A DNA stretch of 64,000 nt from Lobosporangium transversale. Lineage: Eukaryota. A program made the translations under genes and the position numbers. The notes beneath the pieces are model-generated. The model did no database searches, was not told the origin of the DNA, and saw only the letters and a program-made list of their open reading frames with translations. Below are positions 11,796 through 42,477 of the stretch, piece by piece. Position 1 is the first letter of the stretch. Every line of letters starts with the position of its first letter. The stretch lies in contig NW_019029008.1 of the NCBI RefSeq assembly GCF_002105155.1, forward strand, positions 1 to 64,000, read 5' to 3'.

Positions 11796-11832
<37 letters not shown>

Positions 11833-13149: not shown

Positions 13150-13194
<45 letters not shown>

Positions 13195-22100: not shown

Positions 22101-25099
22101 GCATATGTTCCATTCTTGTATTTACTTTTATTTTATTGTATTTTATTTGTTTAGATGATGATCCTGACGGATGGAAACTTGTAGAGTACTTCAAAGCGTT
22201 GACAGAACTAGTCCGGAGTGACGCTGAAAGGATTAAGGTATTGCTCAAAGACTATAGACAGAGATATGTCTTGAAAATCTGTCTCCGATCCTAATACCTG
22301 TGGTTATTTATTATTTCGCCGCTGCACATAGTTTACTCCAAGCTGGAAGTTGTTTATTGACATTCTGTCAAAGATTGACTCAGAACAAATCAAACTGGAC
22401 TATGATAAGAAGGTACATTAGGTTCAGGCTGCATGCCATGTCGTCCACGCGATTCTATACCTTTAAGAACGAGATACTGAACAAAGGCATTTTCCCTTTT
22501 ATGATCGATTTTAGGAAATGATGATCTTCTGGGAAAAGATCATGACTGAAAACCAGGAATTGAACATGCGACTAGCATCCTATAAACCATTGGGCACGCT
22601 ACTTCGAAAGTTTTTTGTGTGTCTTCAGCCCAACCCAACCAATCTGCAATTTCACCGGGAAACCCTTCCTATATACTTTGGTCTCGTACTTCGCTTTAGC
22701 AGGCTCCAACCTGCTTTTCATACCGAATGGGTGCATTGTCACAACTTCACTTGGGCCCTTGGTGCAATGAAGTGGGGAGTCTTCACTCAATATGTAAATC
22801 GGAGCTTCATGGCAAAACTACTTTACCGCGCTTTCTAACGATTACAATGGGTACAAATATGAGCACGAACACGAGCATGGGTTGACTTATGTATTCTTTT
22901 CACTTATTTGTTCCCATAGTGCCCTAGGGAGCTTGATGAGCTACTTGTCTTTACACTTTCAGAATTTCCTCCTTACCGACAAGAGTGTTGGAGAGCGTTG
23001 TCTGCGCCAGATACCCCAAGATTCTACGCTCAGTTCATGCAGTAGGTGATACCATACATTGGGCATCTCATTTTACAATGTAAACAAACTGCAAGGCTTA
23101 ACATGGTTTCTCTCCGCTTAGGATCGCTCGAGCGATGTTCGAAGCTGAAAATGAAATGGCTGGCGCTTTGTTTTATCAGCATCGCGGCCTCGTGCATTTG
23201 ACTGAGGTATGATATCGAATGCTGTGCCGCAACAGTTTTTGCATGCACATGTTGCCATAGCTAGAAAATACTTTGTATCTAAACGTACATTATTTTGGAT
23301 CAAATATCTCCTTCTAAACATCTATAGATAATTCAAAAAGGCGACCAGCCCGAAGCAAACGAGGATGAGTTTTTTGCTGTTGATGCTCTCGTGCTTTTGA
23401 GCGACTACCTTTGCCGAATGACTGTTTGCCGTAACACTGCAGGTAAATGAATTGATCGGTATCGAAAAGATAAATGCAACATGGTCTAGCTAGATGGCTA
23501 AAATCAATGCTTTCTTTTCTGATTGCAGCATTTGCAGAAGCTATGGACCATTGGAGCAACATCTACATCGCTATCAAAATACTTATGGGTAATTTGATGT
23601 GGACAGCTCCTTTTAATGTGTATACAGCCTCGGTCACAATTTTGACCGTGATTGCGAGTGAGGCTACAGAGTCTCAGGCGGCGTCAATCTTGGATCTTTT
23701 GGATAAAGCACACCATGAATTACGGGATAGTGTATTGGAAGCGGAAAGTAAGTAAAACTTTAAAAAAGATCGCCCAGCCTGAGATACAACATGAAGTCCC
23801 TATAAAATACTAATTCCTTCCACCATTCGCAGTTCAAACATGTTTTGGAGGGCCTAACTCTCCATATACTCAATATGGAGTACTTGAATCACGACCAGCC
23901 ATTCCCAATGTGCGCTCGCCCCCTATGAGGATAGGTCCTCTTATCGTGATGCACTCGGAGCTGTACAAACGTCTCGGTGATACAGCTGCTAAACAGGTGT
24001 TGGATGAATGGTTCATGCCTTACTGGACAATGGCCCGAGCAGCATGTAGTCTAGCTGATGGCCATGAGAATCAGAAAAAATCCATTGACCTAGGTAAGCG
24101 CCAATTCTCTTTCCTCATTTCATTATTGATTTTGAAATTTTCCCTTGGGATAGCGAAGAAACATGTCACTCAAACAACCTCATCTTTGGGTTAATTAAAT
24201 GCTCCTAGCTGCTCTAATGGCTCTAGAGCAACTTGATGTGGGCTGCCTTCTTCATATGGATGTTTTATGTGAGGCCATAGTCAACGCTGATAACGCTGAT
24301 AAACTGCTACTGTTTAAGAATTCCAATGTGGCGCTGTTCATGAAGCGATTCCTGAAGCGTGAAAAATATCTTACCAGTCTGAACGAATCTTCTCGGCTGA
24401 GCGCTTGTGCATTGCTTTTGAAGGCTATTGATTTGGAGCAATCATTTCGAAAATCCATCGCAGACGAAAGCTTTACCAAAGCAGAACATGTTTTAAAAAG
24501 GATCGTAGTCCTTGAGGAGTCCCAATCAGGCTACAAAGATCAACAACAGGCTAGAGACAGCGATATGAACAGTGATATGGACAACAACAACGGCCCTCCT
24601 TTGGCTCCTGATCAAGATTGTCAAGACCTTATTATTGTAAGTTCACTTTATGCTTTTAATTATTGGACGGAAAAGAGAGCAGATATTAAGTCCTTTGAGT
24701 TGAATGACTGGATAATGATAATGAATGACGTTTGTTTCCCAAATGTTCGCCTCAAACCCTGATAACTAGGCCTTACAAAACATTGTAATTCTCGATATTG
24801 ATGCACGTGATGAGATTTCAGAAGACTCTGCTCGTTTAAGGCGATTACAGGAGAATATCTATGAAGCTCTACCTCGAGTACCAGAAAAATACAGCTCTAG
24901 CATGTCAAGATTCCTGCCGGTACCACCAACAACAACGTCATCTAATGTACTAAAACCTGTAGAGAATCAAGATGCGAGTGGGAACAATAGTGGAGCAGAA
25001 GATCCAAGTGTTATGACTGGGATTACTGGATAGGCCCCTCATCTTGATGAAGAGCTGGCAACAGTGATGGAGAAGAAGGCTACTGAGCCGACAGAATAA
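12016..25099 (+). CDS. USP34: Large C19 ubiquitin-specific protease of the USP34/USP24/USP9X group; about 33 GT-AG introns
   Basis: Cys box GFVGLQNLGATCYVNSLMQQ (~18901-18960), His box VHTGTADSGHYYSYI, ubiquitin-like domain (~16670-16860) and long helical-repeat regions; exons join in frame to TAA at 25097-25099. Confidence 0.9.
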
Positions 25100-25221
25100 C
25101 AGTACTTTTAGTTGAATTAATGCATAGTGGAGTTAATCAGTTTTTCATATGTACATTAATAAAAAATTATATATCTATATATAAAAAAAATGTGATGAAA
25201 AGCTGTATAATTTTATACATT

Positions 25222-26828
25222 TCAAATATCTATCGCCATACTGGTGGCATTGTGAAAGTTACAATTGACCCAAGTACGTACGGTCTTGTCAAAGCTACAG
25301 CTCACTAGCATATTTCTATGATAGTCCATGTATAGACCTCTGACAACGGAAGTATGGCCCTCCAGAGTTCTAATAATGGCTTGCTCATGGCTTTGTTTAG
25401 TCCCGCGTGTTCCTGCAACAGTAGCTACCGCGGCACCATCATCGGCATTGTTCACTTGCAAGCAGTAAATTTTGTGGTCGTTTCCGGTGACATAAAAATA
25501 TTTGCCAGTCCGATCCCAGACATGTCGAGGGGTCGAGAACCCATCTGTAGGGACGCCATAGTAGTTGAAAAGCTGCAATGCAGAACCAGTTCGAAACAAG
25601 ATCTGGCGACCTGTTGGGGAATCAGTTGAAACCAAGAGGTAACCACCATTATTGTGAGGAGAAGCCGAGATCTCCATGGGGGTAAACGAGACCCAGTTAT
25701 CGTTGTTGAGGTTCATGTTGTACTTTGTGACGGAGTAATCACTTAGATTAATATAGTGCAAGTAGTTGTCGTCTCTTGTTCCAACTACAGCCGTAGGTGG
25801 ACGAGTTTCATTGCAGATGCCATTGTCCACACTGCTGACGCCAGAGTTTGAAGGCCAAGGAAGGACACAAAGACTCTCGACAGCGCCCTTGAACGTCAAT
25901 GTCTTGTCAAGGACATAACGAGGGAGTCTTTTCTCTTGACTCCTATTATTTGTCTCTTCTTCTTCAATTGCCTTGTAGATACGGACCGTCTTGTCATGGG
26001 AGGCAGTGATAATTCGGGATCCGTCCATGGCGAATTTGGCCCGCACGACAAACTTGGCATGATCCTTAAAGATTTGATGTTCTTCACCCAAAACTGTGTT
26101 AGTCAAGACAACAGTCTTGTCCATAGCACTGGTCAACATCAATTCTGGGAATAGTGGATGGAAATCAATATCGAGAGCTACACCACTATGAGGTTGCCAA
26201 ATCTTGAAGACCTCTCCTGGTTGATGGTCACCATGGTCATTAGTGTTTTGTTGTTGTTGTTCAATGGTATTCTTTTGTTTGAGCATTGTAAACTTCACTG
26301 TCCGATCTGCAGCAGCGGTGACGAGAGCAGGGATGAACTTGACTGTCATCGAAGGATCCTGATCGAGATCTTGCCATGTAGGGGCCACAGCCACTTGTGC
26401 TGTCCTGGCAAAGATAATATTCACTGAATGTAAATTTTGAATTACTTCGTCCGCTGTGTCGGGCATCGAGCCATCTCCTGGAGCTGATAAATCTTGCTCC
26501 TCTATTGAGCTATATATGTCGTTTTTTTTTTATATAAAAACCGATGTTAAAATATAAAACATTCTGCTTATAAACTGTGTTGTGCTTTATGATGTCTTCT
26601 TTTTTACCTTGGTAAGTTAAGTTGTCCAAGTTGGTTATGCAGTTGCGACATACGAATATCCGTTAGGACTTCAATAAGAGGTTTAGGTGGAGGGGTGCTT
26701 TGTGGAATATCCTCCAACACAACTTTTGCCTCGTTCTCGAATGCTTTCAGCGCATCATTGTACCCCTGGCTCTGCAGGAAATTTTGGACCATAAGATGAG
26801 CATCACTCACAAGCCGTCTATATTCCAT
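25222..26828 (-). CDS. LisH + WD40-repeat protein; 2 exons (26828-26608, 26509-25222)
   Basis: LisH-like LMVQNFLQSQGYNDALKAFENE; WD repeats LTSAMDKTV, ITASHDKTVRIY, GHTSVVRGL...VSCSFDKTVRTW. Confidence 0.85.
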
Positions 26829-27023
26829 TTTTTTTTTTTTTCTGTGAATGATGTTTTTAATGTATGAGAATTGCTTTTTTAAAAAAAAAATGCTTTTTCC
26901 ATGTCAAGGACCAGGTCACATATTCATGTGCGTGTCATGCATTGGTATTTGGTGGCGTTTTTATTACACTAAAAAAAGGGGTAATGGAAGTGTGCGCTGC
27001 AATTTTTTTTACGACTATATTAT

Positions 27024-29306
27024 TTAAAACTGCATTGCAGAGAGCTCCCAGAGGTAGGCACCGAGCAGCTTGGTACCCTCGATATAGTTGGAGCGATCCA
27101 GCTTCTCGTTGATTGAGTGGGCTCCATCAGAGGATCGACCCATGGGCAATAGGAGGACGTTCTTGTTAAGAGCATCCTGGAAGGTCAAAGTAACGGGGAT
27201 GGAACCACCCTCACGAGTCAAGTCAGGCTTAACTTTGTATACACGCTCTACAGCCTTCGCAGCAGCCACTATTTCATCATAAAAAAAAAGAATTAAAAAA
27301 TAAAATGAAGATTAAAGGCTCCGTTAAGGAAAAAAAAAAAAAAAAAAAAAAAAAAAGACACGTCTAATTACGTTTATTGAAAACAAATGATGTTTGTTCA
27401 TTTTCTTACCATAGTTAGGATGCTCAAAAGAGGCGACCCAAGGCTTTCCAGCATGAAGACACTCGACTTCGATACAGTTCTTAGAACCGAGCTTAGCAAA
27501 TTCCTCCTTGATGTACTTGATGACACAGGCATCAATCTTCTCAGGGACCATGTTGGGCACAGAACGAATTGAGAACTTTCCAATAACCTTGGCAGGAATG
27601 ACAGTTTTGGCTCCTGCAGCAGAAAATGCTCCCTCGATTCCATGAAGCGAAAGAGAGGGGTAGCGCCAACGACCTTTCAAGGCATCAATGTGGTTATCAT
27701 GAATGGTGTTCTGAGCATCAATGGCATTGTGAAGAGTGCTCAAATTGAAGTCCAAAGGAGGGTAGGAAGCCTCTTCGGCATCTATAATCGCACGTGTCGC
27801 AATATTAATATAAGGAAATTGCAACGAATGTTGGCATTTGATCTCCAGATTATTTCTTTTTTTTTTTTTAACATACCAGTTAGCGGAGCAACGTCGTCCA
27901 TGATACCAGGGATGAGGATCTCGCCCTGAGGACTGACAAGCTTGGAAAAGATATGAGCCAAGTCGGTCATGGGCTCATGAACAGTACCACCGAAGACACC
28001 GGAGTGAAGATCACGACCAGGTCCCTTAATAGCAACCTTGTAGTAAGAGATTCCACGGAGACCATAAGTGATGCAAGGCTTGCTATCACCAAGCCAGTAG
28101 TTGTCAGAGATGCAAACAGCATCAACATCCTTGAACCAGCCCTTTGCCTCTGCAATAATCACATCATCCAAGCCTTCTGATCCATTCTCTTCCATTCCTA
28201 TCCCAATAAAATAGAATAGAATAGAATAGGACATATATATTTAGCTAAACGGTCGGGTAACCAGGTGATTAGGCTTGCCTTTTACATATTTTTCGCCAGG
28301 ATGTCGGAATGAATCTTACCCTCAAAGCACATGCGGAGATTGACGGGAAGCTCAAGCCCCAGCTTCTGATGAGCCTCAATAGCGTTCAGCCAGCCAAGAA
28401 TAGGACCTTTATCATCGGTGGAGCCACGTCCGACAAGCTCGCCCTTCTCATTCTCAACCAATTCGAAGGGCTCTGTAGCCCAACCATCCTCTTTAAGGGC
28501 AGGCTGCACGTCGTAATGTCCATAAACCAAGATAGTCTTCTTGGCGGGGTCACGTCCATAGGCACCCAAAACAATGGGAGGAAGCTGAAGAGTATGTCCA
28601 TCCATGATATGAGTGCCGGGGTCACGAATTTCATACCTTTTAGAAAATTTAGTAAGTTTTGAGACAAATTTTTTTCCCAGGAACACTCACAAGCCTCTTC
28701 TGCATTTTGTGACTTACTCAACATTGAGGCGCTTCAACTCCTTCTGGACCCACTCGCCCATGCGGAAGACTTGTGGACGCAGGGAAACATCGGAGCTCAC
28801 ACTAATTAAAAAAAAAAAAAAAAAAAATCAATTGCCATTATAATGGCGTGCTCCTTGGGAATTGAGACGATTTGATATAACCTTCTTTTGCTTTCGCATT
28901 TTTTATTATTTTGTCCAGACAAATGTATTTCTTGAGCAAAAGATGGCATGAGAGAATTGTAGCTGTAGCTTTTGTGTTTTCTATATCCTTTCCTTTTCCT
29001 TTCTCTTTCCCTTTCCCTTTCCCTTTCCCTTTCCCTTCCCTTTCTTTTTTCATTTCTTTTCCCTTTTTTTCCTTTTCTTTCCTTATTTCACATGGATAAT
29101 GCACTGTAGGCGAAAGGGTTTGCTGAGTAGTGTTATGGTAAAGGGACACACATGCACTCTCAATAATAAAAAGCATTATGGATTAACAAAGATGGTACAG
29201 AAAAAAAAAATTACCTAGGAATAGCAACAACATCACGGAGACGTTCCACGTAGATATTCTGGTCCTTATCGACTTGAGCGAAGAACTGGTTGAGTTGTGC
29301 ATCCAT
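27024..29306 (-). CDS. DUG1: Cys-Gly metallodipeptidase (M20A, Dug1/CNDP2), 6 exons
   Basis: Motifs [61 protein letters not shown]; first exon [13 protein letters not shown] starts at 29306. Confidence 0.95.
28987..29043. repeat. (CCTTTC/CCTTTT)n microsatellite in DUG1 intron 1
   Basis: Tandem hexamer-like pyrimidine units are visible on the + strand. Confidence 0.8.
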
Positions 29307-29468
29307 GATGAGAAGATAATATCGGGTGGAATAAACTGTATTGGAATGTGTCGAAGAAAGAGAAGGAAAAAGAAAGAAGGGTACGAGAACCGTGGGAAGT
29401 CAGAAGCAAAAAAAGGAAAAATCCACCCGCCGCGCCACGTCACCTGATGTTAATAAAAAAAAAAAGAG
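29307..29468. promoter_or_regulatory. Very short divergent (probably bidirectional) promoter between DUG1 and TMEM18, containing a GC-rich box with CCACGTCA
   Basis: About 160-200 bp separate the head-to-head start codons; CRE/G-box-like element at ~29435-29442, function inferred only. Confidence 0.4.
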
Positions 29469-29501
29469 ATGTACACCACATTTGGTTCGCAATGCATAAA
29501 G

Positions 29502-30695
29502 ATGTCAATGGCATCGCTTCTGAACATTTCCGAAATGTCATCAGGAATATCAGCAGAAGCTGAAAGAGCAGCAGCAGGAGCATCGGGCGGGACGCAAGGT
29601 ACTTCACAGTTCTGGGACGACTTCTGGAACACGCTCTACCAGTTCACACACCCGTTCTCGTCTACATTCTTTGACTCACTCTTCAGCGACATTGATGCGG
29701 ACAGCCAGGAGGCCATCTTAACCAAACCACAATCGCCTGATGCACAAGCTACCGGAGCTGCCACAGTAGAATCAAACGCAAAACTTCATTTCAAGGACGC
29801 TAGCTCCTTCAATAAGTTTTGGCATGGACTACAGAAGGGAAAGCTCCACCATGATAGTCAGCTTAACACTCCACTTGATCACGCAAAAGCCGCATGGGCT
29901 GACTTTATAGCCGCCTCCACTGGGTTCGTTTCATCTGTAAGCGCTATATGTATCTACCTTTTCATCTTTTATCAAACTCCTCATATATACAAATGAGTGA
30001 GACTGATGTCCATTCTATTCATAATTTCTTCTCCCATCTCGCCAATATCTAGATTGAGTGGCAACAAACATGGATCCTATTGATTTTGACACTACATCTT
30101 TGTATATTTGTGACAATTATACTACTACGCAACAAACCCAACGCTCTCGCTGCCACGCTCCTTTGTACTAGTAAGATTTACACTGTTTGATACAAAATTC
30201 TTTTTTTTTTTTGTAACCAGAGTTTTTGTCCCACGGAGAGAGACAAGGAAGTTGCCCCAAAGAAAGCTGTAAAAAGAAATATCGATGTTTATTTTATTTT
30301 ATTTTTCACTCGGCTCATTGTATTTTGTAATAGTCGTTTTTGCTGCACTGTCAGAGCCACTCAACAGAATCGGAAACCGGCATTGGCAGGTGTTTTCTGA
30401 TGATAATTACTTTGACGAGCACGGCGTTTTTACAAGCCTAGTCTGGGCTGGACCCCACATTAGCAATGCTTTTCTGGCAGTGGTAAGTAATACATTAATT
30501 TTTTTTTTATTTTTATTGGATTTTGCTATAGTCAATTTCATGCTTATCGTGTGATTTTCTCAACTGATGAATTCTTTTTTTGTTCCAACTATACTGCCAT
30601 AATGCGTCCAGATTTTTCTATTAAAAGCTACTGCTACGATGTTGATCAAGGTGAAAAAGGCTCAACTTCAGAGTCAATATAAAAAACGTAAATGA
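29502..30695 (+). CDS. TMEM18: TMEM18 family membrane protein with an N-terminal extension; 4 exons (alternative ATG at 29469)
   Basis: IEWQQTWI..LHL, SEPLNRIGNRHWQVFSDDNYFDEHGVFTSLVWAGP and a basic C-terminus LIKVKKAQLQSQYKKRK match TMEM18. Confidence 0.88.
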
Positions 30696-30739
30696 TAAAT
30701 GATAGCAAATAGTTTAGTGATCCCTACCAATGAACCATA

Positions 30740-30773
<34 letters not shown>

Positions 30774-30832
30774 ATATTTTTACCATATAAAGCATATAAA
30801 GCATGTAAAGCATATAAAGGTACTCACATATT

Positions 30833-32800
30833 TCAAACATAGACAGGCATCAGAGCATCTAAGAAGACCGTCTTACATCCTCTTATATCAAAGTCTGAAT
30901 CTACGAACACTGCCCCCATTAATGCCTCCAACACGTCTCCAAACAGCTTGTCAAAGTGCATATCTTTCAAGCGCCTATCTGACTCTACTTCTGCATTGAT
31001 GCGGGCCATTTTTTGATGAAATCTTTTCCCTTTTCCACCACTGATATATTGACATAGTCCAAGTTGATAAAGGATTTTCCCGAAGGAGTCATTCGAAACA
31101 CTGAGCCTTGGGTGCTGCCCTTCCAAATAATGCGTCCAATATAAGACCGTGATAAAGCCCATCAACGCATCACCTAAAAATTCAAGTCTTTCGAAATCAT
31201 GCGATTGAAGTATGAAGGCTTTTTGAAGAATCGCCTTGTTCTTAAAAGTGTACCTTAAAGTAGTCTCGACTTCCTCAACATCTTGATCGCTCAGTGGTCC
31301 CGGTTCTGTTGTGCTATACAGAGCTGCGGATATTGGGTTTTTTTTGAAAGCCTTGGTTAAATCTTTCCATCGATTAATTTGTGGGAAAACACCATCCCCG
31401 ATCAAATCTTTCACAACTCGAAGAGCTAAATCAAATCCTCCTGCAGATGTGATCTTGATCAGAGCGTTTAGAAAGAACGGCTGTATTTCTTCTGGATTGA
31501 ATGCGCCTCCAGATATTTGCATAAGCCGAGTCTTAATATCTTTAATACAGTGGCTATACCACACCCGTCGTTTGGTAAGAGCACCCGGTCCACCAGGTAT
31601 GGTTACGAATGCTTCTACTGCTAGCAATAAACTGAGAATTGCTCTTCCTAAGCCTCTGCAGAATGAGATCCCGGTAAATGATATTGGCCTCAATGAGACT
31701 CCTTGTATTAAACCAAGCTTCATACAAAGAAGCAGGGCAGCGTGGCAAATCGCCATGCCTTGCTTTATGTAAAAGTCTGATTCTACCTTGGTAAAGCTCG
31801 ATTGCCACCATATAGTGATATCGCATATGTAACCCCATGGAACTATGTCTCCATGGTCCAAATGCCTAAAGCGAACATCTAATGGCGAAGCCTTGTTGGG
31901 ATAAGCAGAAGGTGAGGGTGGATGAGATCCCATGAATGAAAGAAGATAGTCCCTTGCCTGCATAAATAACGCAAAGACGTGGAATTGATCGTCGCTTCTA
32001 TGGAGCTCCGTTTCTTTAAACATCTGCATAGCCGCATTGATTTCTCTTAATGTAGCAGCATCATCGTCAACAATGGCCTTTTCTGTTGGATTAATAACGT
32101 CGTAATGATGAAGAGGAGGATGACAGCGCAAGGCAGAGCTATCTTCTCTGCTATGGGAGGTCTTCGTGCTCGATTTTACAGGGGCTGGCTGTAAGTCAAG
32201 CACACCCAACTTGTGTAATCGCTTGCAGACTTCAACTGAGAGATGGAGCTTGGCCTTGAGCTTTGAATAATGTGGACCTGACGAAAGTGACTGGAAAGGC
32301 GCTCCATCAGGAAGGAGAACACTGACGTACCAGTTGTTAAACTTGTTAGGGACTGGAAAAAAGCTGAACTGTGGTTCGAGGACGGATGGTTGTGAGCTCA
32401 AAGTAGAAGTGACTGCAGAAGTATTGAGAATAAGTATAGAAGAATTACGAGGAGGCGCAGCAGAAAAAAGCGGAGTGGTTGGGATTGTCAATGTCGAGCA
32501 GTATTCGTTCAGGAGAGACAACCCAGTAAACAAAGAAAGATAGGCACCACTGCTTGGAATAGTATACAACACGCTATCAGTGGAGATACTAACGTTAGCG
32601 CTGACAGCGCTAATGCTAGCGGAGGTATTCGAGGAAGAGACTGTAGCGTTCGCTTCATTAGCTCCATCTAATAATGATGAAGTGGAGGTGGCAGTAAAAG
32701 TAGCTGTGCTTGTTTCTCCAGAGAAGATATTGTCTCCAGTAAAAGCTCTTTTACTAGAATCAGCATAGAGATGATCTGTAGCCTTTCTTTTCGACAACAT
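30833..32800 (-). CDS. Intronless Dicer-derived RNase III protein (655 aa): Dicer dimerisation domain, degenerate RNase IIIa, intact RNase IIIb
   Basis: YTIPSSGAYLSL..LSLLNEYCSTL...VLLPDGAP...KAK..VEVCKRLHKLGVLD (Dicer_dimer-like); LRYTFKNKAIL, FERLEFLGDA and KLFGDVLEALMGAVFVDS (RNase III signature). Confidence 0.85.
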   Translation of the reverse strand: MLSKRKATDHLYADSSKRAFTGDNIFSGETSTATFTATSTSSLLDGANEANATVSSSNTSASISAVSANVSISTDSVLYTIPSSGAYLSLFTGLSLLNEYCSTLTIPTTPLFSAAPPRNSSILILNTSAVTSTLSSQPSVLEPQFSFFPVPNKFNNWYVSVLLPDGAPFQSLSSGPHYSKLKAKLHLSVEVCKRLHKLGVLDLQPAPVKSSTKTSHSREDSSALRCHPPLHHYDVINPTEKAIVDDDAATLREINAAMQMFKETELHRSDDQFHVFALFMQARDYLLSFMGSHPPSPSAYPNKASPLDVRFRHLDHGDIVPWGYICDITIWWQSSFTKVESDFYIKQGMAICHAALLLCMKLGLIQGVSLRPISFTGISFCRGLGRAILSLLLAVEAFVTIPGGPGALTKRRVWYSHCIKDIKTRLMQISGGAFNPEEIQPFFLNALIKITSAGGFDLALRVVKDLIGDGVFPQINRWKDLTKAFKKNPISAALYSTTEPGPLSDQDVEEVETTLRYTFKNKAILQKAFILQSHDFERLEFLGDALMGFITVLYWTHYLEGQHPRLSVSNDSFGKILYQLGLCQYISGGKGKRFHQKMARINAEVESDRRLKDMHFDKLFGDVLEALMGAVFVDSDFDIRGCKTVFLDALMPVYV

Positions 32801-34610
32801 GCTTTTCGCAAGAAAAAACAAACAAAAGCTATTAAACTACTGAAGCGATAAGTACAATCAATACCCTCAAAGCCTTCACCAACAAGATAAAGAGAAGCAA
32901 GGGAAAAAAGAAAAAAAAAAAAGTGAGAGAGCAAAAGTCAAAGTAAGATTTGAGCGTAGAAGTGATTGAAAGAGAATACAACAATGATGAACAGAGAAAA
33001 TAGATTGAAGTGAAGGAAAATAGGAATGAGTTTCTTTCCGCTGAATAAATTTGTGACCATCATAAATAAAAAAATCATGGCACTCTGTTGATTGGAGCGT
33101 TTTTATGGAAAATGACGCTGCGTGGAATATTCCATCTCAGGAAAGCTACTCCAACTTCTGTCCCTTTGCCACCATTTTGGAATTATGATATTGAGTTGAA
33201 ATGTAGGCAAGACAGTGCATCAAGCATACCATGCAGACAAACTCTGTTTGAACTGGGTAATAAAAGAGCACAGACCGCAGACTGAACCTAAAGTGGACAC
33301 TCCAACGAATAATGTAAGCGTACAAGTGCATGGCATATACAGGAGACCAAGCCTTTGGCTCTGATAATAGAATCCCTCATCAGAGTTTATAGTGACAATG
33401 GAGCATGTGCTAAGTACATATTTTTTGATTTAAAAGGAGAAGAAAAAAAAAAAAAAAAAGGATTAGTGAGAAACCCAATAACTAGATGACCCTCAAATGG
33501 GATATCTCTTGAGTCCGATTGCTTTCGAGCGAAAAACCAGCTTAAAGTGGCGCATCCTGGGTTATATGCTCGTATGTGGACAGGCAACGAGTCGAGTACT
33601 CTTTTTATTTTTCATCCTTTTAGCTCCCTTGGCTTTGTTGTTCGACTAGTTTACTCAACCTCATCAATTTAATGTAAAAAACTTCGCGCCAAATGGTTAT
33701 ATTGGTTTTCTCTATTTAAGAGCTTTCAGTTCCCACTCTCCCTCTGTTCATTCGTGATTAGCTCTCTACTACATCTTTGGTACCAAACATCACCTTATTG
33801 GTATACTATATGATGTACCTCTCATGTCTAGTTTATCAAGCTCTAAGTTAAAGCCTCATTTATAGATGTGAAGCAATATTGTAAAGTACAATGTAGACCT
33901 TTGATTCTTATCTCTTTCTAGGGCACTGCAGTAGTTAAACAACTTCTCCATCTCTCAGCCGTTACATTCAGATTGATACCATCATAGTCTACAAGAGTAA
34001 CAACCTAATCAGTGCCGGCCTTGCAAGCCACCCAGTTCTGATTATTATTATCATGGGCATGATTGTCCCTCCACTGCTGCATGACTATAAGCCCCTGAGG
34101 ACAACAACCCAAAAAATTCTGTTAAATAAAATAGCGCAACATCGAGGGTTGCCATGACCGAGGTATGGTGTCGTAACACTAGGTACGCTCTTAACCTAGA
34201 GCATAATCCGTATTCCCGAAAGACTATACCCTATTGTCTTATCTTTTATATCATCTACTAAGGTTCGATAATACAAATGAGGAGAGGCAGAGCGCGCTGC
34301 TACTGCAGTGCGGCTTCCCTGGTCAAGACTAATGCGGCAATCCCTCAAGATCTTCTGCCACACCTTTGCGAGGCGGCGGACCAAACAGGACTGATGACAA
34401 GGCGACGATCTTTATTTCAAATCAATATTCGTAACAACTTCTAAATGTTTAAAAATTATCAGCATCACTTTTAAGCAAGAGCAGGGATGGAGGCAACTTC
34501 AATAGTTTTAATGATCGGCTTTATTTCTGTTTGGCCTTATGAGGAAGCATGAAGCTACATCATCGTTTGCCCATTTTTTTTTTAGCCTTCAGGGACACGC
34601 GTTTAATGGT

Positions 34611-36068
34611 CTAAAATTCTATTTTCATCTTGACTATACTCTTCAACTGGTATTCTTCTTTTCTTTCTGTTAAATCATTATATCCCTCACTTGAATACTC
34701 CGCATTCCCACTATCTCGCCTAGGAAACCCAATGAACATTCCATGGCCATACATATCTTTTCCTTCATCATACTTCTTGGCGTCATAGTCTAGATATTGC
34801 ATGCTGGCGATTGGGGCTATGGATAAGGTCGGCTGATGCAAAGTCGGCGACGAAGGTAAAGGCGAAAGTGATAGTGATAGAGTCGACTGCTGCAACAGGG
34901 ATGGCTTAAAGCCATTGTTTTTCAAAATTGAATCCATATTACTAACTGATACGTCTGTTTTATGAGGCGAAGAGAGACCATTATTACGAAGACCAACATT
35001 GGCATTGACAATAGTTGTCATTTCCTTTGCCTCTGCTCGTATTGGCTCTACCACAAAACCGGCTGGTCGGTTCCCTTTACTCAGTCCGATCTGCTTTTTT
35101 TCTATTGCAAGTAAGGGCGCTTCTGAGGTTTGTGCTATTACTGTTGCTGTTGATTCTATGCTTTTGAAATGGTTGTATTGCTGTTGTGCCTTTATACTGC
35201 TACATCCGTAGTAGTCATCCTTAATTGGATACATCAATACATTCATCCTTCCAGTGATGACTACTAACGTGTTTCTTGAGACCAAGCGCCAATCAGTCTC
35301 CTCAAAAGTCAATGGCTCAGATGCAATCATCACAATGTCCTCTCGCTTTACTTTGGCTGCTTCCTTGACCATCCTATAGTGCCCTGGCTTATAGCATTCG
35401 AATCTAGTCCCTGAAGAAAAATAAAGCCTTTCCGGCTCGAGGGCGGCAGACGAAGAATTGATATAGCGAGTACAAACGACAGAGACACCATCAGTCACCG
35501 CAAAATTCAGCATTGAGGGCGTGAGTCCATTGTTCGCTGTTTTTTCAATAGACTTGAACCACATGTTAAATTTCCGGATGGTGTTAAGCATGGCTTCCTT
35601 CAGAGTCTCATGGCCAAATGGTTCACATTGTCGTGGACATTGGAGCTGGCTTAAGAAGACTGCAAAGGCCCATTCTGAATCAGTGTTGCCGTTAACGCTA
35701 AGAAAGATCTCATCTGAAAGAGACTCTTGCAAACGTCGCTTGATCTGACACACACACAAACACACACAAACACACATGTATTAAAAAAAAAAAAAAAAAA
35801 AAAAAGAGGCGTTAACATGGGGCAATGACCAAGACGGTACTGGAAAAAATTAATTTTGCAGAGTATATCGTTTGCATGCGCCCTGCATGATCCTCTGTAA
35901 AGCTTCATTTTTCTCCCAACAGAAGAGAGCCAAGAATAATAGAATCTTATTTCTTCTCAAGATCATCAGTATTAAACAATAGCAAAAAATACATAACGGA
36001 TTTCACCACATGTGCATAGATGGCGCAAGCTCTCTCCGGACTTGCGTGATTTTCTACTCGTACCTGCC

Positions 36069-36099
<31 letters not shown>

Positions 36100-36360
36100 T
36101 ACCTCTTAGCATCGAAGTTTAATACGTTCCATTGTCTCACTTACCAAATGGAAATCGGAAACCATGCCATGGTGCATAAACATGAGTCTTCCATATTGCC
36201 ATGGATGGCCTATCGAGTTATCATTGGATAGATATTAGTAATCAAGCAAATAAACACGTAATTCCGTCCTCCTTATCTCATCCTTCTCAAAGTGCGTTGA
36301 GGGAAGATAGATTAAATGTATCAACATCTATAAAATTTTATCGTCAATGTTTTTTTTCTT

Positions 36361-36395
<35 letters not shown>

Positions 36396-36771
36396 CCAAA
36401 GCCAGAGACCGTTGATTGACCTTACAGTTGCTCTCAGAGACCGAACCAGCAGCCGCAGCGCGCACATGAGCAAAGACTAAAGGACTCTTGATCTTATTCG
36501 CTAGACGGATCAAGTTCATATTGTTCCATGCTGGAGTCACAGACGTGAAGATACAAGGTGCTGCAGACCCGTCAATGGAAGATTCAGGTTCATACCATCC
36601 TAAAACCTCGGAAAAAAAAAAATGAATGATTGGATTGCGTAAACACATGTCCCCAAAGGAATTTTAAGTTAGACCTCCTGAAAAAAGTAAAAAATAAAAA
36701 AAACGGAGATTTAGTACTTTAGTACTTACCAACACCAAATCCATCGCCTTGTCGAGACCGAGAAAAAGGGG

Positions 36772-36804
<33 letters not shown>

Positions 36805-37129
36805 ACTAAAAAAACAAGGGAAAGGTCGATGGTTGATATTGCTCTGTTTTCGTTTTTAGTTTACCATTGATCAATCTACGGCCGTCGACCGGTCTTTTTG
36901 AATCAAAGGACTGATTGATGATAGAGTGGGCTGGTTTTGTTAAGAGCTGAAAAATGAATTAAAGTTCGTTTATTGGAATGTAGCTGATGAATGAACATGA
37001 CATGACATGAGCATGAACATGAATGATGGTTCATTTTACATGAGCTAGTTGAATGGGCTGCCTGCCTTTGTAGAGCAACATCCGACATCTGGCTTGAGTA
37101 TTTAATGGCATGTAGAACGAAGAATCCAT
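34611..37129 (-). CDS. DUG3: Dug3-like class II glutamine amidotransferase with N- and C-terminal extensions; 6 exons including an 18-nt micro-exon
   Basis: Spliced product CRMLLYKG..HLLTKPAHSIINQSFD..NGDGFGVGWY..PAWNNMNL..FAHVRA..NCHPW..GNTDSEW..NFAVTDG..IASEPLTF. The start codon is uncertain. Confidence 0.85.
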
Positions 37130-37531
37130 ATCAAATGAAGCCAGGAATATGCTTTTAAATAATTGTGTAAGAGTATTGTTCAATGAAGAAAAAAGGGATA
37201 AAAAAAAAAGAGTGAAAGAAAGAGGATTGGAAACAACTGAAGTAAAGAGAGTAGAGAAACACATACTAAGATGTAAGAAAGGTATCAGGCGACTTTTTAT
37301 GAATATGAAATAACTCACTATCAGACGTTTATTTCATTGGGCGTTAGGGCAAGTAAAGGCGCAGTAGATAAAAAATAGTGCGACGCGTCTATTTCCATTG
37401 GCTTAATGTGTGATACAACAACAATGTTTTATTATAATACAATGAGTCCTCATTACAATAATAAGGTAGTGTTACAAATGCGTCATTTGTGCGGTGGGAG
37501 CCAAAAACACCTTTTGTTCCTTCTCTGCCTT

Positions 37532-40500
37532 TCAACGCACTCTATAAGCTCGCTTTTTGGAACGCGTGGATCTCGACTGTGGCATTATTCCAATGGACTC
37601 TTCCATTTCTTCTAGCATTACAGCATTCTTGATCCGCAATCGCCTCTTTGGCTTTTTGGCTGTTACCTCCATCGCATCATTCCCAGCAACCTTTTCGTCT
37701 AGATTAGTACTCGTATTGATAACTAGTTCTTCAGCCAAAAGAGTCTGACCTCGGTCATACTGGATCAAAGCTTCATCTTTGTCCTCATCGTCATCCCTGG
37801 CCTCGATCGTTACCTCAATGTCACCTTGATGATTCATATCATGGTTGTCCAACCCATCATCAATGGATGCCATGTATTGGTCACACGTCGCTCCGTGAAG
37901 CATTCCTGATGTATCCATTGAGTTTTGATACTCATCTACTGATGATGGTGACAAGAACTTGGAACAAACAGGGTAAGGAGACGAAACATCCACAGAAATA
38001 GTATCGATAAAATCATCATTCATAGGGTGATCCTTGACTATGTCAGGGTAGCTCTCCTCAGGATTGCTATTTGTTACTGATGATGAGTGTAAGGACGACA
38101 AAAATGATTCAGCCTGAGTACTTGACACAGATACGAGACCAAGATCGTCGCTATCATCCATATCATCCAGTATCTCGGGCATAGTGTACTCTTCAATCTG
38201 CATGTGACCATCTTGTAGAAAGCTACTTGGACTAATACTTTCAACTTCTAGTGGATCCCGAATACCTTGAGCTTGAATGCCTATGCCATGACCATCCTGC
38301 CAACATTCATGGTTATTGCCATCACCATCGATTTGCAATCCCGTCATTGAATCATCTCTTAAAAATCTTCTTGCTCTTTTGCGTGGCGGCGTACACGGGG
38401 TTTGAATAGTTTGTATAACGATGCTCTGGTCAGATTGAAGCGTTGGAAGCAAACTAATTGATGATTTATACTCAGAACAATGAGTAATGGACGGACTAGC
38501 AGGGTTTTCCTTCAGAGCCTTCAAAGGCGATTTTTCCCGCCTCTGTTGCTTCGCTGAAGTATGCGTTGAGGAATGAGGATGAGAGTCTGGACTTGTTATC
38601 TTATGGTGACCTGTATGCTCTTCGGTCCTGTGAACATTTAGACGAGATTCCGGTGCCATCGAGAAACGCAAGGTGCTTCTGGTTTCCTCATAATTATCAT
38701 GACGAGGATTGACATTTACAACTACGCTGATCTTTGTTCTGTTTGATTTTTCGTTAAGAGCAGCTTGAAAGGTCTGGGTTAGTTTGCTTTGCTTATAAGG
38801 TACGGGTTGACGACTCTAATGACGAATTTGATAGCAATTTATTTTTCGGGTTAGAATTAGCATACCAATACCAATAAGCCATATTTTTCGATAGCAATAG
38901 CAAAGGAATAAGGTGTTGGTTCCAAAAACTAACCTTTACTTTTGGTTGCAGATTTGTTTTGAATACCTCCAAACACTGGCGAAGGTGCATCAGGCTACTA
39001 TTGATATTGACAATTTCCCGCTGCTTTTGCAGATTACTGCTGGCCGAATGTAAACGTTCCGAACCAGCCAAGTCCACGATTGACAAACGAGATACTGATG
39101 TCTTCCCTATAGCAGCAGTTTCTGCCGCACTGTTGCCGAGCTGCGGGGTTTTGAGAACCTTGATTGTAAACACAAAGTGACTTCGAGATGGCGTTTTACT
39201 GAGTGCTACAGAAACGTGTCGTTGTGCGAGCCCAGTTTGAAGAACTAATAATGCCTCATCTAAAGTTCGAACCCGGATTTCTTTGAGTCCATGTATGTAC
39301 TTCTGTCCTGTGATATCTGTTCTCAAGTCCAGTGCGGGTTTTTGGGAATTAATCGAACTGGGCACAGTTCCATTTGATGCCGCCGCCTCTCCTAGAAGAT
39401 CATAAATCTTGTCCATGTATAACTCAGCATATGAGATCCAAACTGCATAAGCCATTCCGTTCGGGAGATCAACAACTATATTTGTAATAAAACTGTCATT
39501 AGCAACTCATGGACAATGAAATTTAATAATCGAAATGATTACGGTACACATCCTACACATACTATGGTCTTCAGTATCAGTTTTATCTACTTTTGGTAGA
39601 TCCCTTAACTTGAAGCCGAGTTTTTTGGCGGAGTTGCGGTGTTTCTTGAACTGTGATTTGATACCATCTAGAGATTTTTGGACACCTTGTCCTCTCTCTT
39701 CAATCATCTCTACTCCTTGGTATCCAACCGGACGGTACTGGTCGGCCTCATCAGAACTTTCAACACATTGTCCAATAGAGCGAAAGATGACAGCAAGAGC
39801 TCTTGGTAGGATACCAGCCTTGCCGGGATGGTTTGATCCGATCATGGTATGGGCCTTCCCCGAGTTCCTGCCTCCGTAACCAAACAGGAGTGCGCTGAAA
39901 TTGCTTTCTAGGAGTACTGATGCTATGAGTGGGAAGCATACCTCTTCAAAGACTTCAGCTTGGATTGCTGTGGGCTCAAATGCCCGAAAAAACTCATATT
40001 TCGATGGCTCCTTGAAACGGACCTAGTAACGGTGGTTTCATCACGATTAATACGAAGAGTCGACCACATCAGTCGTATGCTTACAGGAAATCAACCAATG
40101 TCTTTCATAACAATCGCCAAGCTCAACTCACATGAGGTGAAGGTGACAAGAGTACATCGCTTTTGTTCAGAACTTTTACATAGCTTTCGTGGCCTTTGCT
40201 CTCAATGGACCTTATACGTAAGAAAATCTAGGTTCAATATCATCATCGACGTCATTAATGGAAAATAAAGATACACGACGACGCTTTAACAAGATTCAAG
40301 TATTTACCTTGACTGGCTCCGAATCCGAGAGATCATGATGAAAAGAATATTGGTCTAGTAGACTATCATGTTGTAAGACAGTTGGCGAAGATGGGATAGA
40401 TTCTGTTGACACCGTCGAGGCAGCAGGCGAGCTTAAAAGAGCTAAATCGCTCAAGGAGATGTGTGAGCGAGCCTCGGGCGATTGTTGGGCCAATTTCTTT

Positions 40501-40882
40501 TTAATAGGCGATTTGACGGAGATATTTTTGTAGAGTTTTGGTGGTGGCAGGAACAACGAGCGATGCTTTGTTCGAGATATGTTCTGATTCACGCCTCCCA
40601 GGGACGCTGAGTACCTCTCCGCCGACTGCGAAGCATTGGTGCTCGCTGCGTGCATTTTCCGCCCTGTATTTGTTCTTTCAAGAGACAAAATCCTGTCAAT
40701 ATGTCAAAGAAAGTTTAAGCTCTCCTTGTTGCAACCTTTCAATTATGAATCGTTTATGGTGCGAGTTGTCCAAGGCATCCTTACTGTGGCTGGTTAGGAT
40801 GGCGCACCTTGTCGCGAGATACACTTCCTAATGGTTTCTGTTGTACATGCTTTGCATGCCTTCTACGGCCATCTTTGGCCAT
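37532..40882 (-). CDS. Divergent kinesin-6-like motor protein (KIF20/KIF23 group), about 6 exons
   Basis: PVK|IFLRIR, FGYGGRNSGKAHTM, a long loop-6 insertion typical of kinesin-6, SRSH, IVDLAGSER, NINSSL, VPYKQSKLT, ETRSTLRFS. Confidence 0.85.
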
Positions 40883-42477
40883 GACTTGAAAAATGTGTAA
40901 AGGAAATGGAGTTCGCGAAGAAATAAACAAAAAGAGAGAAGGCGAAGTTTAGCAGTCGTCCTTGAAACTAAATTAAGGGTTGTTGTGTCTTTTTGTTATT
41001 AGTGTTGATGTTGTCTTGGCGACTGTTCGATGGCTGTTGGTTTCCCAAACCTTTCTTGATTTAACCGTATTTAGCAGAATTAGTGAGCATCCCTTGAATA
41101 GCTGCCATCCAGAGAGGCTACTTAGAATGGACAGGATTCACTGTGTTGTTCAAAAACAATAAAACTTGGCCGTAAGTCTATTAATTCTCAAACCATGAGG
41201 CAAAAATGCCTCTGGACGCTTCAATAGGATTGTGGCGTGCTTTAGAGGCGTAGAAAAGACAGCATTGAGCAATAGAGGATATAGGATCTGTTCTTTGGAG
41301 GCAAACTTTTTGAAGCTACGCCTTTTGCTGGTAAAAACACAAATGGCTCCCGTTTTCCGCATACTTCAGCGCTTCCACAATTCAAAGGCTGTGACGTAGC
41401 CATCAAATATACACATCCCTCGCAAAAGTTCAGGTGTGATGCAAAGAGTACTGTTTAAGGGACTTAAACCATATGGAGTCTGAACAGTCGCCCTTTGGTC
41501 CACAAGTGTACCTCAGCATGTCAACATGGACCGCCACAAAACTATCTGTTGCTTTCCATTAACACCGCTATCTATGTTGTTAAAGAATGCTAAGGGTTAT
41601 GTTAAGGGCAAGTCCCATGGATCGTGGCTTTTGCTCTAAGCATGATTGCAGACGCAAATTGTCAGTTGCTACTCTAGTTTTTGCTGTGATTGGCCATTTT
41701 TTGAATATTGGTAATGAACAAACACGGAGGTGCCTGGATTGTAGACAGAGTTATTGTTATAAACATTACTTTCATCTACTCAGGAGCAACGATCTGGTTT
41801 TCTTATGCCATATGTGAAAGAGAAATAATGATTTTATTGGACAAGTGCATACTTGACAGCAAGGTGAAAGCAACTAAATATCAATTGACAGTAATGAATT
41901 GTAGGGTTGTTTGCTTATTGCAATCGAAGTCAATGAATGGACTGTAGAAAAGCCAGAGAGGCAATGGTTAATGAGAACATGAGGTAGATGTTAAAATGAG
42001 CTCATTCAACAAAATGCCGTGTTTAAAAGGTTGGAACGCGCTTCCATTTTGGTACGAAGAGGATTTTAGGAGAAAAAAACTTTTTCGTGAAGAGGAATAG
42101 TCACCCTTTGCATCTTTATTAATTCAATGTTATTTGGCTGAATGAAGGTTTCAAAGCCCTTGCGTCTATTGTGGGCTAGCCCCTCTAAACGTTTTTGGTG
42201 AGAAAAGATGATGATGGGAAGAACACAATGAAGTCGGCGCAAAACAAGGTCAAGGATAGTCGGATGATCGGACCATTCGGATAAAAAAAAAAAGAAAAAG
42301 GAAAGCACGGTGCTTCAGCGCAGAAGCGTTGTTCTTGATTTGACCCAGTCTAGATACTTGCTTTGTACATGTTTTTACGCTTTGTTCAAGGAGGTGTCAA
42401 AGACAAAAAAACCTGTGAACAAATTATGCAAACAATCGTATAGCGATCAGTTCCAGATTGTGCATTCGCATTACATG

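Follow-up and report, generated by a model that had tools for sequence, protein, structure and literature searches.

The DNA stretch analyzed here, positions 1 to 64,000 of contig NW_019029008.1 of the fungus Lobosporangium transversale (RefSeq assembly GCF_002105155.1; hereafter the window), carries on its reverse strand a gene for a short Dicer-like protein, designated mini-Dicer or P0001. An original prediction, made from the sequence alone, had described this gene as an intronless and possibly retroposed Dicer derivative with a degenerate RNase IIIa and an intact RNase IIIb domain. Its reading frame extends from stop to stop over 667 codons (30833-32836, reverse strand), with the first ATG at 32800, which gives a protein of 655 amino acids (aa). 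At the base composition of the window (41% G+C) an open frame as long as that of P0001 is expected by chance with a probability of about 6e-19. The features of the gene and of the encoded protein are listed in Table 1.

Table 1. Features of the mini-Dicer gene and its product (positions in the window; AF2, AlphaFold2 model; pLDDT, predicted local distance difference test score)
Feature	Position	Strand	Basis or remark
Mini-Dicer P0001, coding sequence	30833..32800	-	One exon, 655 codons and TGA stop
5' untranslated part under the RNA contig	32801..32896	-	Contig alignment
Disordered Ser/Thr-rich N-terminus, residues 1-77	32570..32800	-	pLDDT 25-53
Dicer_dimer (DUF283) domain D1, residues 78-205	32186..32569	-	PF03368, hhalign, AF2
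Linker with two predicted helices, residues 206-270	31991..32185	-	30-32% identity to orthologues; pLDDT mostly <60
Dicer_dimer-like domain D2, residues 271-362	31715..31990	-	AF2, hhalign; directly before the dead nuclease domain
RNase IIIa-like pseudo-nuclease, residues 378-470	31391..31669	-	hhalign, residue table, pLDDT 79-93, superposition
RNase IIIb, predicted active, residues 505-655	30836..31288	-	PF00636, PDB sequence matches, fold matches
IIIb signature ERLEFLGD (E537, E540, D544)	31169..31192	-	Sequence
IIIb second acidic pair DVLE (D622, E625)	30926..30937	-	Sequence
A30 run in gene sense, 61 nt after the stop	30743..30772	-	One of 12 A/T runs of at least 25 nt

Transcription of the gene was revealed by a public sequencing run, X1, in which 90% of the words sampled from 30700-32900 were present. 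This run is not on record as RNA; it was taken as RNA because its contigs contain 11 spliced joints of 80-163 nt, with GT..AG or CT..AC ends, in the neighboring genes (25000-41000). A contig of 2050 nt from this run is colinear with 30915-32896, with no differences, no gap and no joint, so that the transcript is unspliced across at least 1886 of the 1968 coding bases. At its upstream end 44 further contig letters fall in a low-complexity stretch (32897-32936) that was skipped in the alignment, while the other end of the contig bears adapter. Thus, the mini-Dicer gene is transcribed without introns, in line with the contrast to an intron-rich neighborhood that had been drawn from the sequence. 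It should be added that this contrast is only mildly unusual here, since the window holds other long uninterrupted frames (725, 654 and 514 codons).

The RNA contig stops about 100-140 nt before the ATG, and the next 4 kb are uncovered: between 32904 and 37281 there are no X1 contigs except at 35146-35679 (depth 0.71). The lack of contig cover in this region and at 30833-30914 is not evidence of silence. When two full-length canonical DCL1 proteins of Mortierellomycota (P0016 and P0011) were compared with the whole 64 kb by tblastn, the only matches were to the IIIb part of the mini-Dicer. Thus no upstream exons (at 32.8-34.5 kb) supply a helicase or PAZ domain, a possibility that the original prediction had named, and coding sequence for these domains is absent from the whole 64 kb.

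In Pfam scans P0001 matched Dicer_dimer (PF03368, E 6e-13, residues 123-210, above the gathering score; 95-210 when the N-terminal third was scanned alone) and a single RNase III domain (PF00636, E 1.7e-9, residues 537-635). Nothing else was found at E<=10, and in particular no helicase, PAZ (PF02170), platform or dsrm. The C-terminus of the protein, residue 655, coincides in the AF2 model with the end of the last IIIb helix. The closest sequences in PDB are those of Arabidopsis DCL1 (E 1.2e-10), Dicer-like protein 4 (9kby), bacterial RNase III and human Dicer. The matching part is residues ~500-655 in every case, to which the plant DCLs add a weak match in the Dicer_dimer part, and the best matches (DCL1, DCL4, Dicer and DCL3) have E values from 1e-10 to 7e-7.

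The distribution of related proteins was studied by several searches. A word-indexed protein search found only the query among 7995 scored candidates. A HMMER search covering 1.84 billion cluster representatives gave 505 matches at E<=1e-3, 26 at <=1e-10 and two at <=1e-30; 150 matches were listed, and most of these carry the paired RNase III signature typical of Dicer-type proteins. Two proteins of L. transversale, both annotated as 'hypothetical', are full-length orthologues or paralogues of P0001: P0002 (665 aa, 48% identity, aligned over 1-653) and P0003 (638 aa, 44% identity). The identity between P0001 and P0002 is 43-58% in the folded domains and 32% in the linker. One more L. transversale protein, P0005 (226 aa), follows P0002 closely over ~150 residues before departing from it, and resembles a faulty model of the P0002 gene from another assembly. 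In a metagenome scan with the family alignment 376 relatives were confirmed; among the 80 of them that were retained, most of which cover IIIb only, as judged from the matched query ranges (top identity 24-28%), there was no close relative.

Further family members were chosen among the 150 listed matches by the presence of a single RNase III signature near the C-terminus and then by Pfam and source names; the 355 matches past the 150 and the short clustering fragments P0019, P0020, P0075, P0093 and P0108 were left out. Besides P0001-P0003, the family comprises P0035 (Mortierella sp. NVP85), P0074 (Mortierella sp. GBAus27b), P0063 and P0152 (two models of one gene of Gamsiella multidivaricata), P0068 (Benniella sp.), P0080 and P0147 (Mortierella sp. 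AD094), P0151 (Mortierella sp. AM989), P0034 (Entomortierella chlamydospora) and a soil metagenome protein, P0082. In total there are at least 13 sequences among the matches listed, from eight named taxa, the window and one metagenome. Apart from P0001, in which Pfam recognized no second RNase III stretch, 11 members were scanned (all but P0152), and such a stretch was recognized in only one of them (P0151). The source names of the members vary from 'Dicer-like protein 1/2' to 'Chitin synthase, class 2'. The protein bearing the latter name, P0080, consists of Dicer_dimer and RNase III followed by an unrelated C-terminal tail. We found no description of these Mortierellomycota proteins in the literature, subscription journals and supplements lying outside our coverage; looking up terms in PMC7763443, PMC8705501 and PMC5786227 likewise yielded nothing about Dicers of Mortierellomycota.

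Decayed-helicase-like stretches are located at the N-termini of P0035, P0074, P0063/P0152, P0068 and P0082. In P0068 and P0082 faint remnants of Helicase_C were detected (E 0.004-0.008), and P0035 has the sequence DDCSHH at the place of the DECH motif, which is present in the helicases of Dicers. Their sequences suggest that the helicase was lost stepwise within the family.

In the region before IIIb, the scan of P0001 residues 230-380 and 340-500 in isolation gave no Pfam match at E<=10. Since single-sequence scanning gave nothing, the homology of this middle domain had to be examined with profiles. The columns of residues 366-476 were cut out of the family alignment (A2, 13 sequences) and compared with canonical IIIa and IIIb profiles built from the 69 two-signature Dicers among the HMMER matches. 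The family profile matched canonical IIIa with a probability of 98.6% (hhalign, E 1.1e-15, 98 columns) and canonical IIIb with 86.2% (E 4.9e-6, 48 columns), against 0.2% and 0.5%, respectively, for the control stretch 228-365.

We next placed the 13 family sequences in one alignment with 47 canonical Dicers (A3, 60 rows). G385, the glycine of the LGD signature, does not vary across this alignment, and G385 and G455 are both invariant in all 13 family rows. At the aspartate of the same signature D is present in all 47 canonical rows and in none of the family rows (one of which has E), and the D..E pair of IIIa is likewise kept in 0/13. In P0001 itself CR--GLGR stands in place of ERLExLGD and P441..L444 in place of D..E. 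All four catalytic carboxylates of IIIa are replaced; the domain is also shorter than canonical IIIa, a segment of ~35 residues being missing from its interior. Judging from profiles and alignment, the middle region of P0001 is an RNase IIIa homologue without acidic residues, and P0001 belongs to a Mortierellomycota family of short Dicer-like proteins that share this dead IIIa.

By contrast with its dead IIIa, IIIb of P0001 keeps the five acidic residues E537, E540, D544, D622 and E625. P0002 keeps the same set, and both proteins retain N570 and K618 as well, at 47-48% identity over IIIb. Within the family E540 and D544 are each conserved in 12 of the 13 members, D622 in 11 and E625 in all. 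The IIIb signature of P0003 reads DRFGYLGN against ERLEYLGD, with three residues lost, while the D..E of the second motif is kept; one Lobosporangium species thus carries a half-dead and a mostly dead mini-Dicer paralogue.

The single-sequence AlphaFold model of P0001 was unusable (pLDDT 37). With alignment A3, AF2 gave a model with a mean pLDDT of 71.5 and a predicted template modeling score of 0.57, in which the IIIa-like domain reaches 79-93 and IIIb mostly 88-98. The top 12 Foldseek matches of this model were all Dicers. In VIA-align, residues 365-655 were superposed onto residues 1288-1843 of human Dicer (5zak_A) with Z 23.9 and a root-mean-square deviation (rmsd) of 3.4 A over 283 residues; the values for Drosha (5b16_A) and Giardia Dicer (2ffl_D) were Z 21.6 and Z 18.8, each over 253 residues, and those for isolated RNase III domains Z 15-17.6 over 129-155 residues. 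Since the match of the pair outscores those of single RNase III domains, both nuclease halves fit simultaneously. The IIIa-like and IIIb domains are therefore predicted to form a pair with the intramolecular geometry of Dicer and Drosha. It had been left open by the original prediction whether the middle region adopts an RNase III fold at all; in the model it fits Dicer IIIa+IIIb.

The part of the protein before the nuclease pair contains DUF283-type domains. D1 matched the canonical DUF283 profile with a probability of 99.3% (hhalign, E 6e-21) and has the fold alpha-beta-beta-beta-alpha over residues 90-197, with pLDDT 85-96 outside a low-confidence insert at 111-136. Between D1 and the IIIa-like domain lie the linker and a second DUF283-like domain, D2. 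The elements of D2 in the AF2 model (helix 271-292, strands 307-314, 323-332 and 335-340, helix 347-361; pLDDT 62-79) follow the same alpha-beta-beta-beta-alpha order. In hhalign D2 matched the C-terminal half of the canonical DUF283 profile (41 rows) with 75% (E 2.6e-5, 42 columns) and the single DUF283 of six other family members with 92% (E 6e-7); for D1 and the same six members the figures were 92% and E 7e-7. In a BLASTP alignment of P0001 with P0080, the last helix of D2 is aligned in one piece with the Dicer_dimer helix of P0080 and the IIIa-like domain that follows it. As a lead only, a language-model look-up with residues 265-365 retrieved three Dicer_dimer clusters at 0.80-0.81. Direct comparison of the D1 and D2 profiles within the P0001-P0003 subclade gave 1% probability, that is, no detectable likeness; 'doubled' therefore means here that D1 and D2 each match the DUF283 of other proteins and not each other. 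With moderate confidence, the P0001-P0003 subclade carries a doubled DUF283-type module.

At the N-terminus the basic residues KRK (4-6) and KR (17-18) are present in P0001, as had been noted, and may be a nuclear localization signal; the start MxSKRKA is common to P0001 and P0002. Altogether, the original domain assignments were borne out: (i) Dicer_dimer, placed at ~32566-32195 (residues 79-202), is matched by PF03368; (ii) the degenerate IIIa, placed at ~31660-31395 (residues 381-468), was recovered by the profile match and lacks the acidic residues; (iii) IIIb has all of its acidic residues in ERLEFLGD and DVLE (the coordinates given correspond to residues 537-625); and (iv) helicase, PAZ and C-terminal double-stranded RNA-binding domain (dsRBD) are absent, as seen from Pfam, from tblastn and from the end of the protein after the last IIIb helix. 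The view of P0001 as a Dicer derivative with Dicer_dimer, a dead IIIa fold and an intact IIIb is supported. What the earlier account lacked were the second Dicer_dimer-like domain, in a stretch that it had left unassigned, and the family of at least 13 members, including the full-length P0002 and P0003 from Lobosporangium.

To place the family among Dicers, a tree of the IIIa and IIIb columns was built (59 rows). P0001-P0003 form a group with 100 support in the SH-like approximate likelihood ratio test (SH-aLRT), sister to P0080+P0034 (SH-aLRT 95). In total, 10 of the 12 family rows fall in one group (support 72, weak) beside canonical Mortierella DCL1. When all 12 family rows were constrained to be together, the log-likelihood was 27 units higher than in a quick free search, with p 0.77 in the approximately unbiased test (p-AU). 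Because the columns of the dead IIIa could bias the grouping, the test was repeated on IIIb columns alone; the 12-row clade gave +18.9 (p-AU 0.71) and the 10-row core +21.0 (p-AU 0.73). A single origin of the family by duplication of a Mortierellomycota Dicer is compatible with these trees, although not proven by them.

P0001 is clearly Dicer-derived, and it is not a full canonical Dicer, since PAZ, helicase, dsRBD and the second live site are all absent. Canonical fungal Dicers (Mortierella/Podila DCL1; P0016, 1289 aa, and P0011, 1605 aa) have the same order of Dicer_dimer, IIIa and IIIb; Mortierella DCL1 is the canonical row nearest to the family in the IIIa+IIIb tree, and its IIIb catalytic set is identical. 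Compared with them, P0001 has only 655 aa, lacks the helicase, the platform-PAZ-connector and the C-terminal dsRBD, has a shortened IIIa without acidic residues and contains an extra DUF283-like domain. The minimal Dicer of Giardia intestinalis (2ffl) is, like P0001, small and devoid of helicase and dsRBD, and its core can be superposed as described above. However, it keeps the platform-PAZ ruler and two live sites and has no DUF283, as far as the excerpts of PMC7827160 describe it; P0001 is the reverse, with DUF283 kept and doubled, PAZ lost and one site dead. The Dcr1 of budding yeast has a single RNase III domain with a dsRBD and works as a homodimer (PMC7827160, in excerpt), whereas P0001 has a second (dead) RNase III fold and no dsRBD after it.

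P0001 and R3B2, which belongs to a non-canonical RNA interference pathway of Mucorales, are both atypical RNase III proteins of early-diverging fungi that depart from the dicing of double-stranded RNA (dsRNA). R3B2 is of class I type, with one unusual RNase III domain and dsRBDs, and acts as a homodimer on single-stranded RNA (PMC8136814, in excerpt). P0001, in contrast, is Dicer-derived and combines two RNase III folds with Dicer_dimer domains, a canonical dsRBD being absent, so that the difference in architecture claimed originally was upheld. No chain named R3B2 was found among the 33 PDB sequence matches or the 50 listed fold matches of P0001.

Each RNase III domain cuts one strand. The reading that we favor, to which we give about an even chance, is that P0001 is an expressed, intronless, truncated Dicer paralogue with a predicted Dicer-type pair of domains and one live site, which would likely cleave a single strand. 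P0001 would bind duplex or hairpin RNA in the valley of the IIIa-like/IIIb pair, and IIIb alone would cut, on the side of the 5p arm by analogy with Dicer. Since there is a single catalytic centre, one strand would be cut per binding event, and since there is no platform-PAZ ruler, no end-measured product of 21-25 nt is expected. RNA or partner binding and targeting might be provided by the two DUF283-type domains or by partner proteins.

Several systems provide precedents. When one site of an RNase III dimer is dead, dsRNA is nicked, and the trypanosome proteins KREN1-3 are modelled in this way with the degenerate KREPB4/5 (and KREPB6-8), as live/dead pairs that cut one strand (PMC3867540, in excerpt). 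In that case the domains are located on separate polypeptides of a 20S complex with zinc-finger and PUF modules, and the likeness to P0001 is one of principle. In Dicer the 3p arm is cut by IIIa and the 5p arm by IIIb, and human or mouse DICER1 mutants in a single domain (RNase IIIa D1320A; the IIIb hotspot), which combine a dead and a live site, yield nicked precursors (excerpts of PMC12700799). The natural state of P0001 corresponds to the IIIa mutant; however, the DICER1 variants are point mutants of a full-length, PAZ-measuring enzyme, whereas P0001 has lost the entire acidic set of IIIa, which is also shortened, and has no ruler. According to the excerpted text of PMC7827160, PAZ with the platform acts as the ruler, Dicers that lack PAZ either measure in another way or do not measure, and DUF283 has a dsRBD fold and binds single-stranded nucleic acid and partner proteins.

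A number of points weigh against this reading. DUF283 shows little or no binding of dsRNA (PMC7827160, in excerpt), and productive dsRNA binding without PAZ, helicase and canonical dsRBD is uncertain. The geometry of the pair in the model may be inherited, because canonical Dicers make up 47 of the 60 rows of its alignment. Expression was seen in a single RNA data set, as assembled contigs, with the last 82 nt of the coding sequence (30833-30914) outside the contig. A 150-row tree of IIIb only scatters the family and puts P0001-P0003 beside microsporidian Dicers, a placement that is probably due to long-branch attraction, as judged from the higher likelihood of the constrained trees. Finally, three of the 13 members are substituted at IIIb catalytic positions (P0003 with D/G/N, P0080 and P0034 with D622N); therefore catalysis is not required in every family member and, judging from these residues, some may be non-catalytic.

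Mortierellomycota are widespread in soil and in association with plants, and they are used in industry to produce lipids. To our knowledge, their RNA interference (RNAi) machinery is almost unstudied. The hallmark of Dicer is two live sites and a ruler; this fungal lineage kept expressed derivatives that lack the ruler and one of the sites but retain the other site and the pseudo-dimer fold. Should these derivatives be RNA nickases, the live/dead pairs of the editosome and the disease-linked DICER1 mutants would have a natural counterpart in a single chain, and early-diverging fungi would have another non-canonical RNase III route in addition to R3B2 of Mucorales. The wider proposal that the Mortierellomycota family is a clade of dedicated Dicer nickases without ruler and helicase and with one nuclease site permanently off, guided by the doubled DUF283 and constituting an undescribed branch of RNA processing or silencing comparable to R3B2, is tentative, and we hold it to be doubtful. 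If instead they are catalytically idle regulators, they would show how a pseudo-enzyme has evolved within the RNAi machinery.

We also considered a homodimeric double-strand cutter, in which IIIb would pair with IIIb across two chains, as in bacterial RNase III or the Dcr1 of budding yeast, so that two sites would be live and the IIIa-like domain would be a mere scaffold. Non-canonical PAZ-less Dicers do work as homodimers (PMC7827160, in excerpt), IIIb of P0001 fits the nuclease domains of bacterial RNase III well (Z 15.2-15.5, rmsd 1.9-2.2 A), and the domain before the nuclease pair bears the name of a 'dimerisation' domain. On the other hand, the model puts the IIIa-like domain on the dimer face of IIIb, as in Dicer and Drosha, and the preservation of the IIIa-like fold with G385 and G455 in all 13 members would be explained most easily by its continued pairing with IIIb. 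A prediction of self-association for two copies of residues 366-655 scored 0.00 against a mark of 0.32, which speaks neither for nor against binding. On this evidence we regard a double-strand cutter as unlikely.

Alternatively, P0001 could be a non-catalytic RNA-binding or regulatory protein, either a decoy or an interactor of canonical DCL or dsRNA-binding proteins, which would act via its DUF283-type domains and for which nuclease activity would be dispensable. This would agree with the known binding of DUF283 to proteins and single-stranded nucleic acids, with the doubling of this domain in the P0001-P0003 subclade and with the substitutions in three of the 13 members, which include the Lobosporangium paralogue P0003. 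Nevertheless, it appears improbable for P0001 and P0002, whose IIIb catalytic set has been kept despite their divergence, which argues for selection on catalysis in this lineage.

The evidence bearing on retroposition was reviewed separately. No direct repeat that could represent a target-site duplication flanks the mini-Dicer unit; the best pair of repeats agrees at 17 of 21 nt, and one of its copies is located inside codons 4-10 and is conserved in P0002. The A30 run after the stop is weak evidence for retroposition, because the window has 12 such runs, and it is probably an ordinary intergenic or 3' untranslated region (3' UTR) homopolymer and no proof of a retrocopy. It should be mentioned that the relative P0082 is also encoded in one frame, of 633 codons, on its metagenome contig. 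A recent processed retrocopy or decaying pseudogene of canonical Dicer without a function of its own, for which the absence of introns next to genes with introns every few hundred bases, the A30 run in gene sense and the fast evolution of the protein could be cited, is very improbable given that the 655-codon frame is intact and transcribed, relatives of similar length (P0002, with the same start, and P0003) exist in L. transversale and the dead IIIa is common to a family from eight named taxa; the evidence against neutral evolution of the frame is indirect. Thus, the retroposition suggested by the original prediction was not supported, the architecture being old and family-wide.

The 12 homopolymers are pure A or T runs of 25-30 nt, none longer than 30, and occur both in introns and between genes (e.g., 13163-13192, 36772-36801, 30743-30772, 750-778 and 11800-11828); the ceiling at 30 may be biological or may reflect a limit of assembly or polishing. 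Between the stop of the mini-Dicer gene and the A30 run, the presumed 3' UTR contains three overlapping copies of an 18-nt unit with a 9-nt period (30784-30819; CATATAAAG/CATGTAAAG).

Long open reading frames in the neighborhood encode unrelated proteins (UCH, WD40, M20 peptidase, kinesin and others), and Rfam and tRNA scans of the 64-kb window gave nothing. A convergent spliced gene on the forward strand (29457-30374) with two GT..AG introns (29936-30053 and 30170-30334) ends within ~460 nt of the mini-Dicer stop; its first frame, of 179 codons, has no Pfam match. On the other side, the 389-codon frame at 34611-35780 (reverse strand) has no Pfam match and is almost uncovered by X1 apart from one bin (depth 0.71); it shows a weak match, below the cut-off, to the EgtC amidohydrolase model TIGR03442 (E 1.4e-10). 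A DNA-binding helix-turn-helix domain of Tc5 transposase (PF03221, E 8.5e-11) was detected in the frame at 56920-57633 on the reverse strand, which may represent the remnant of a pogo/Tc5-type transposon.

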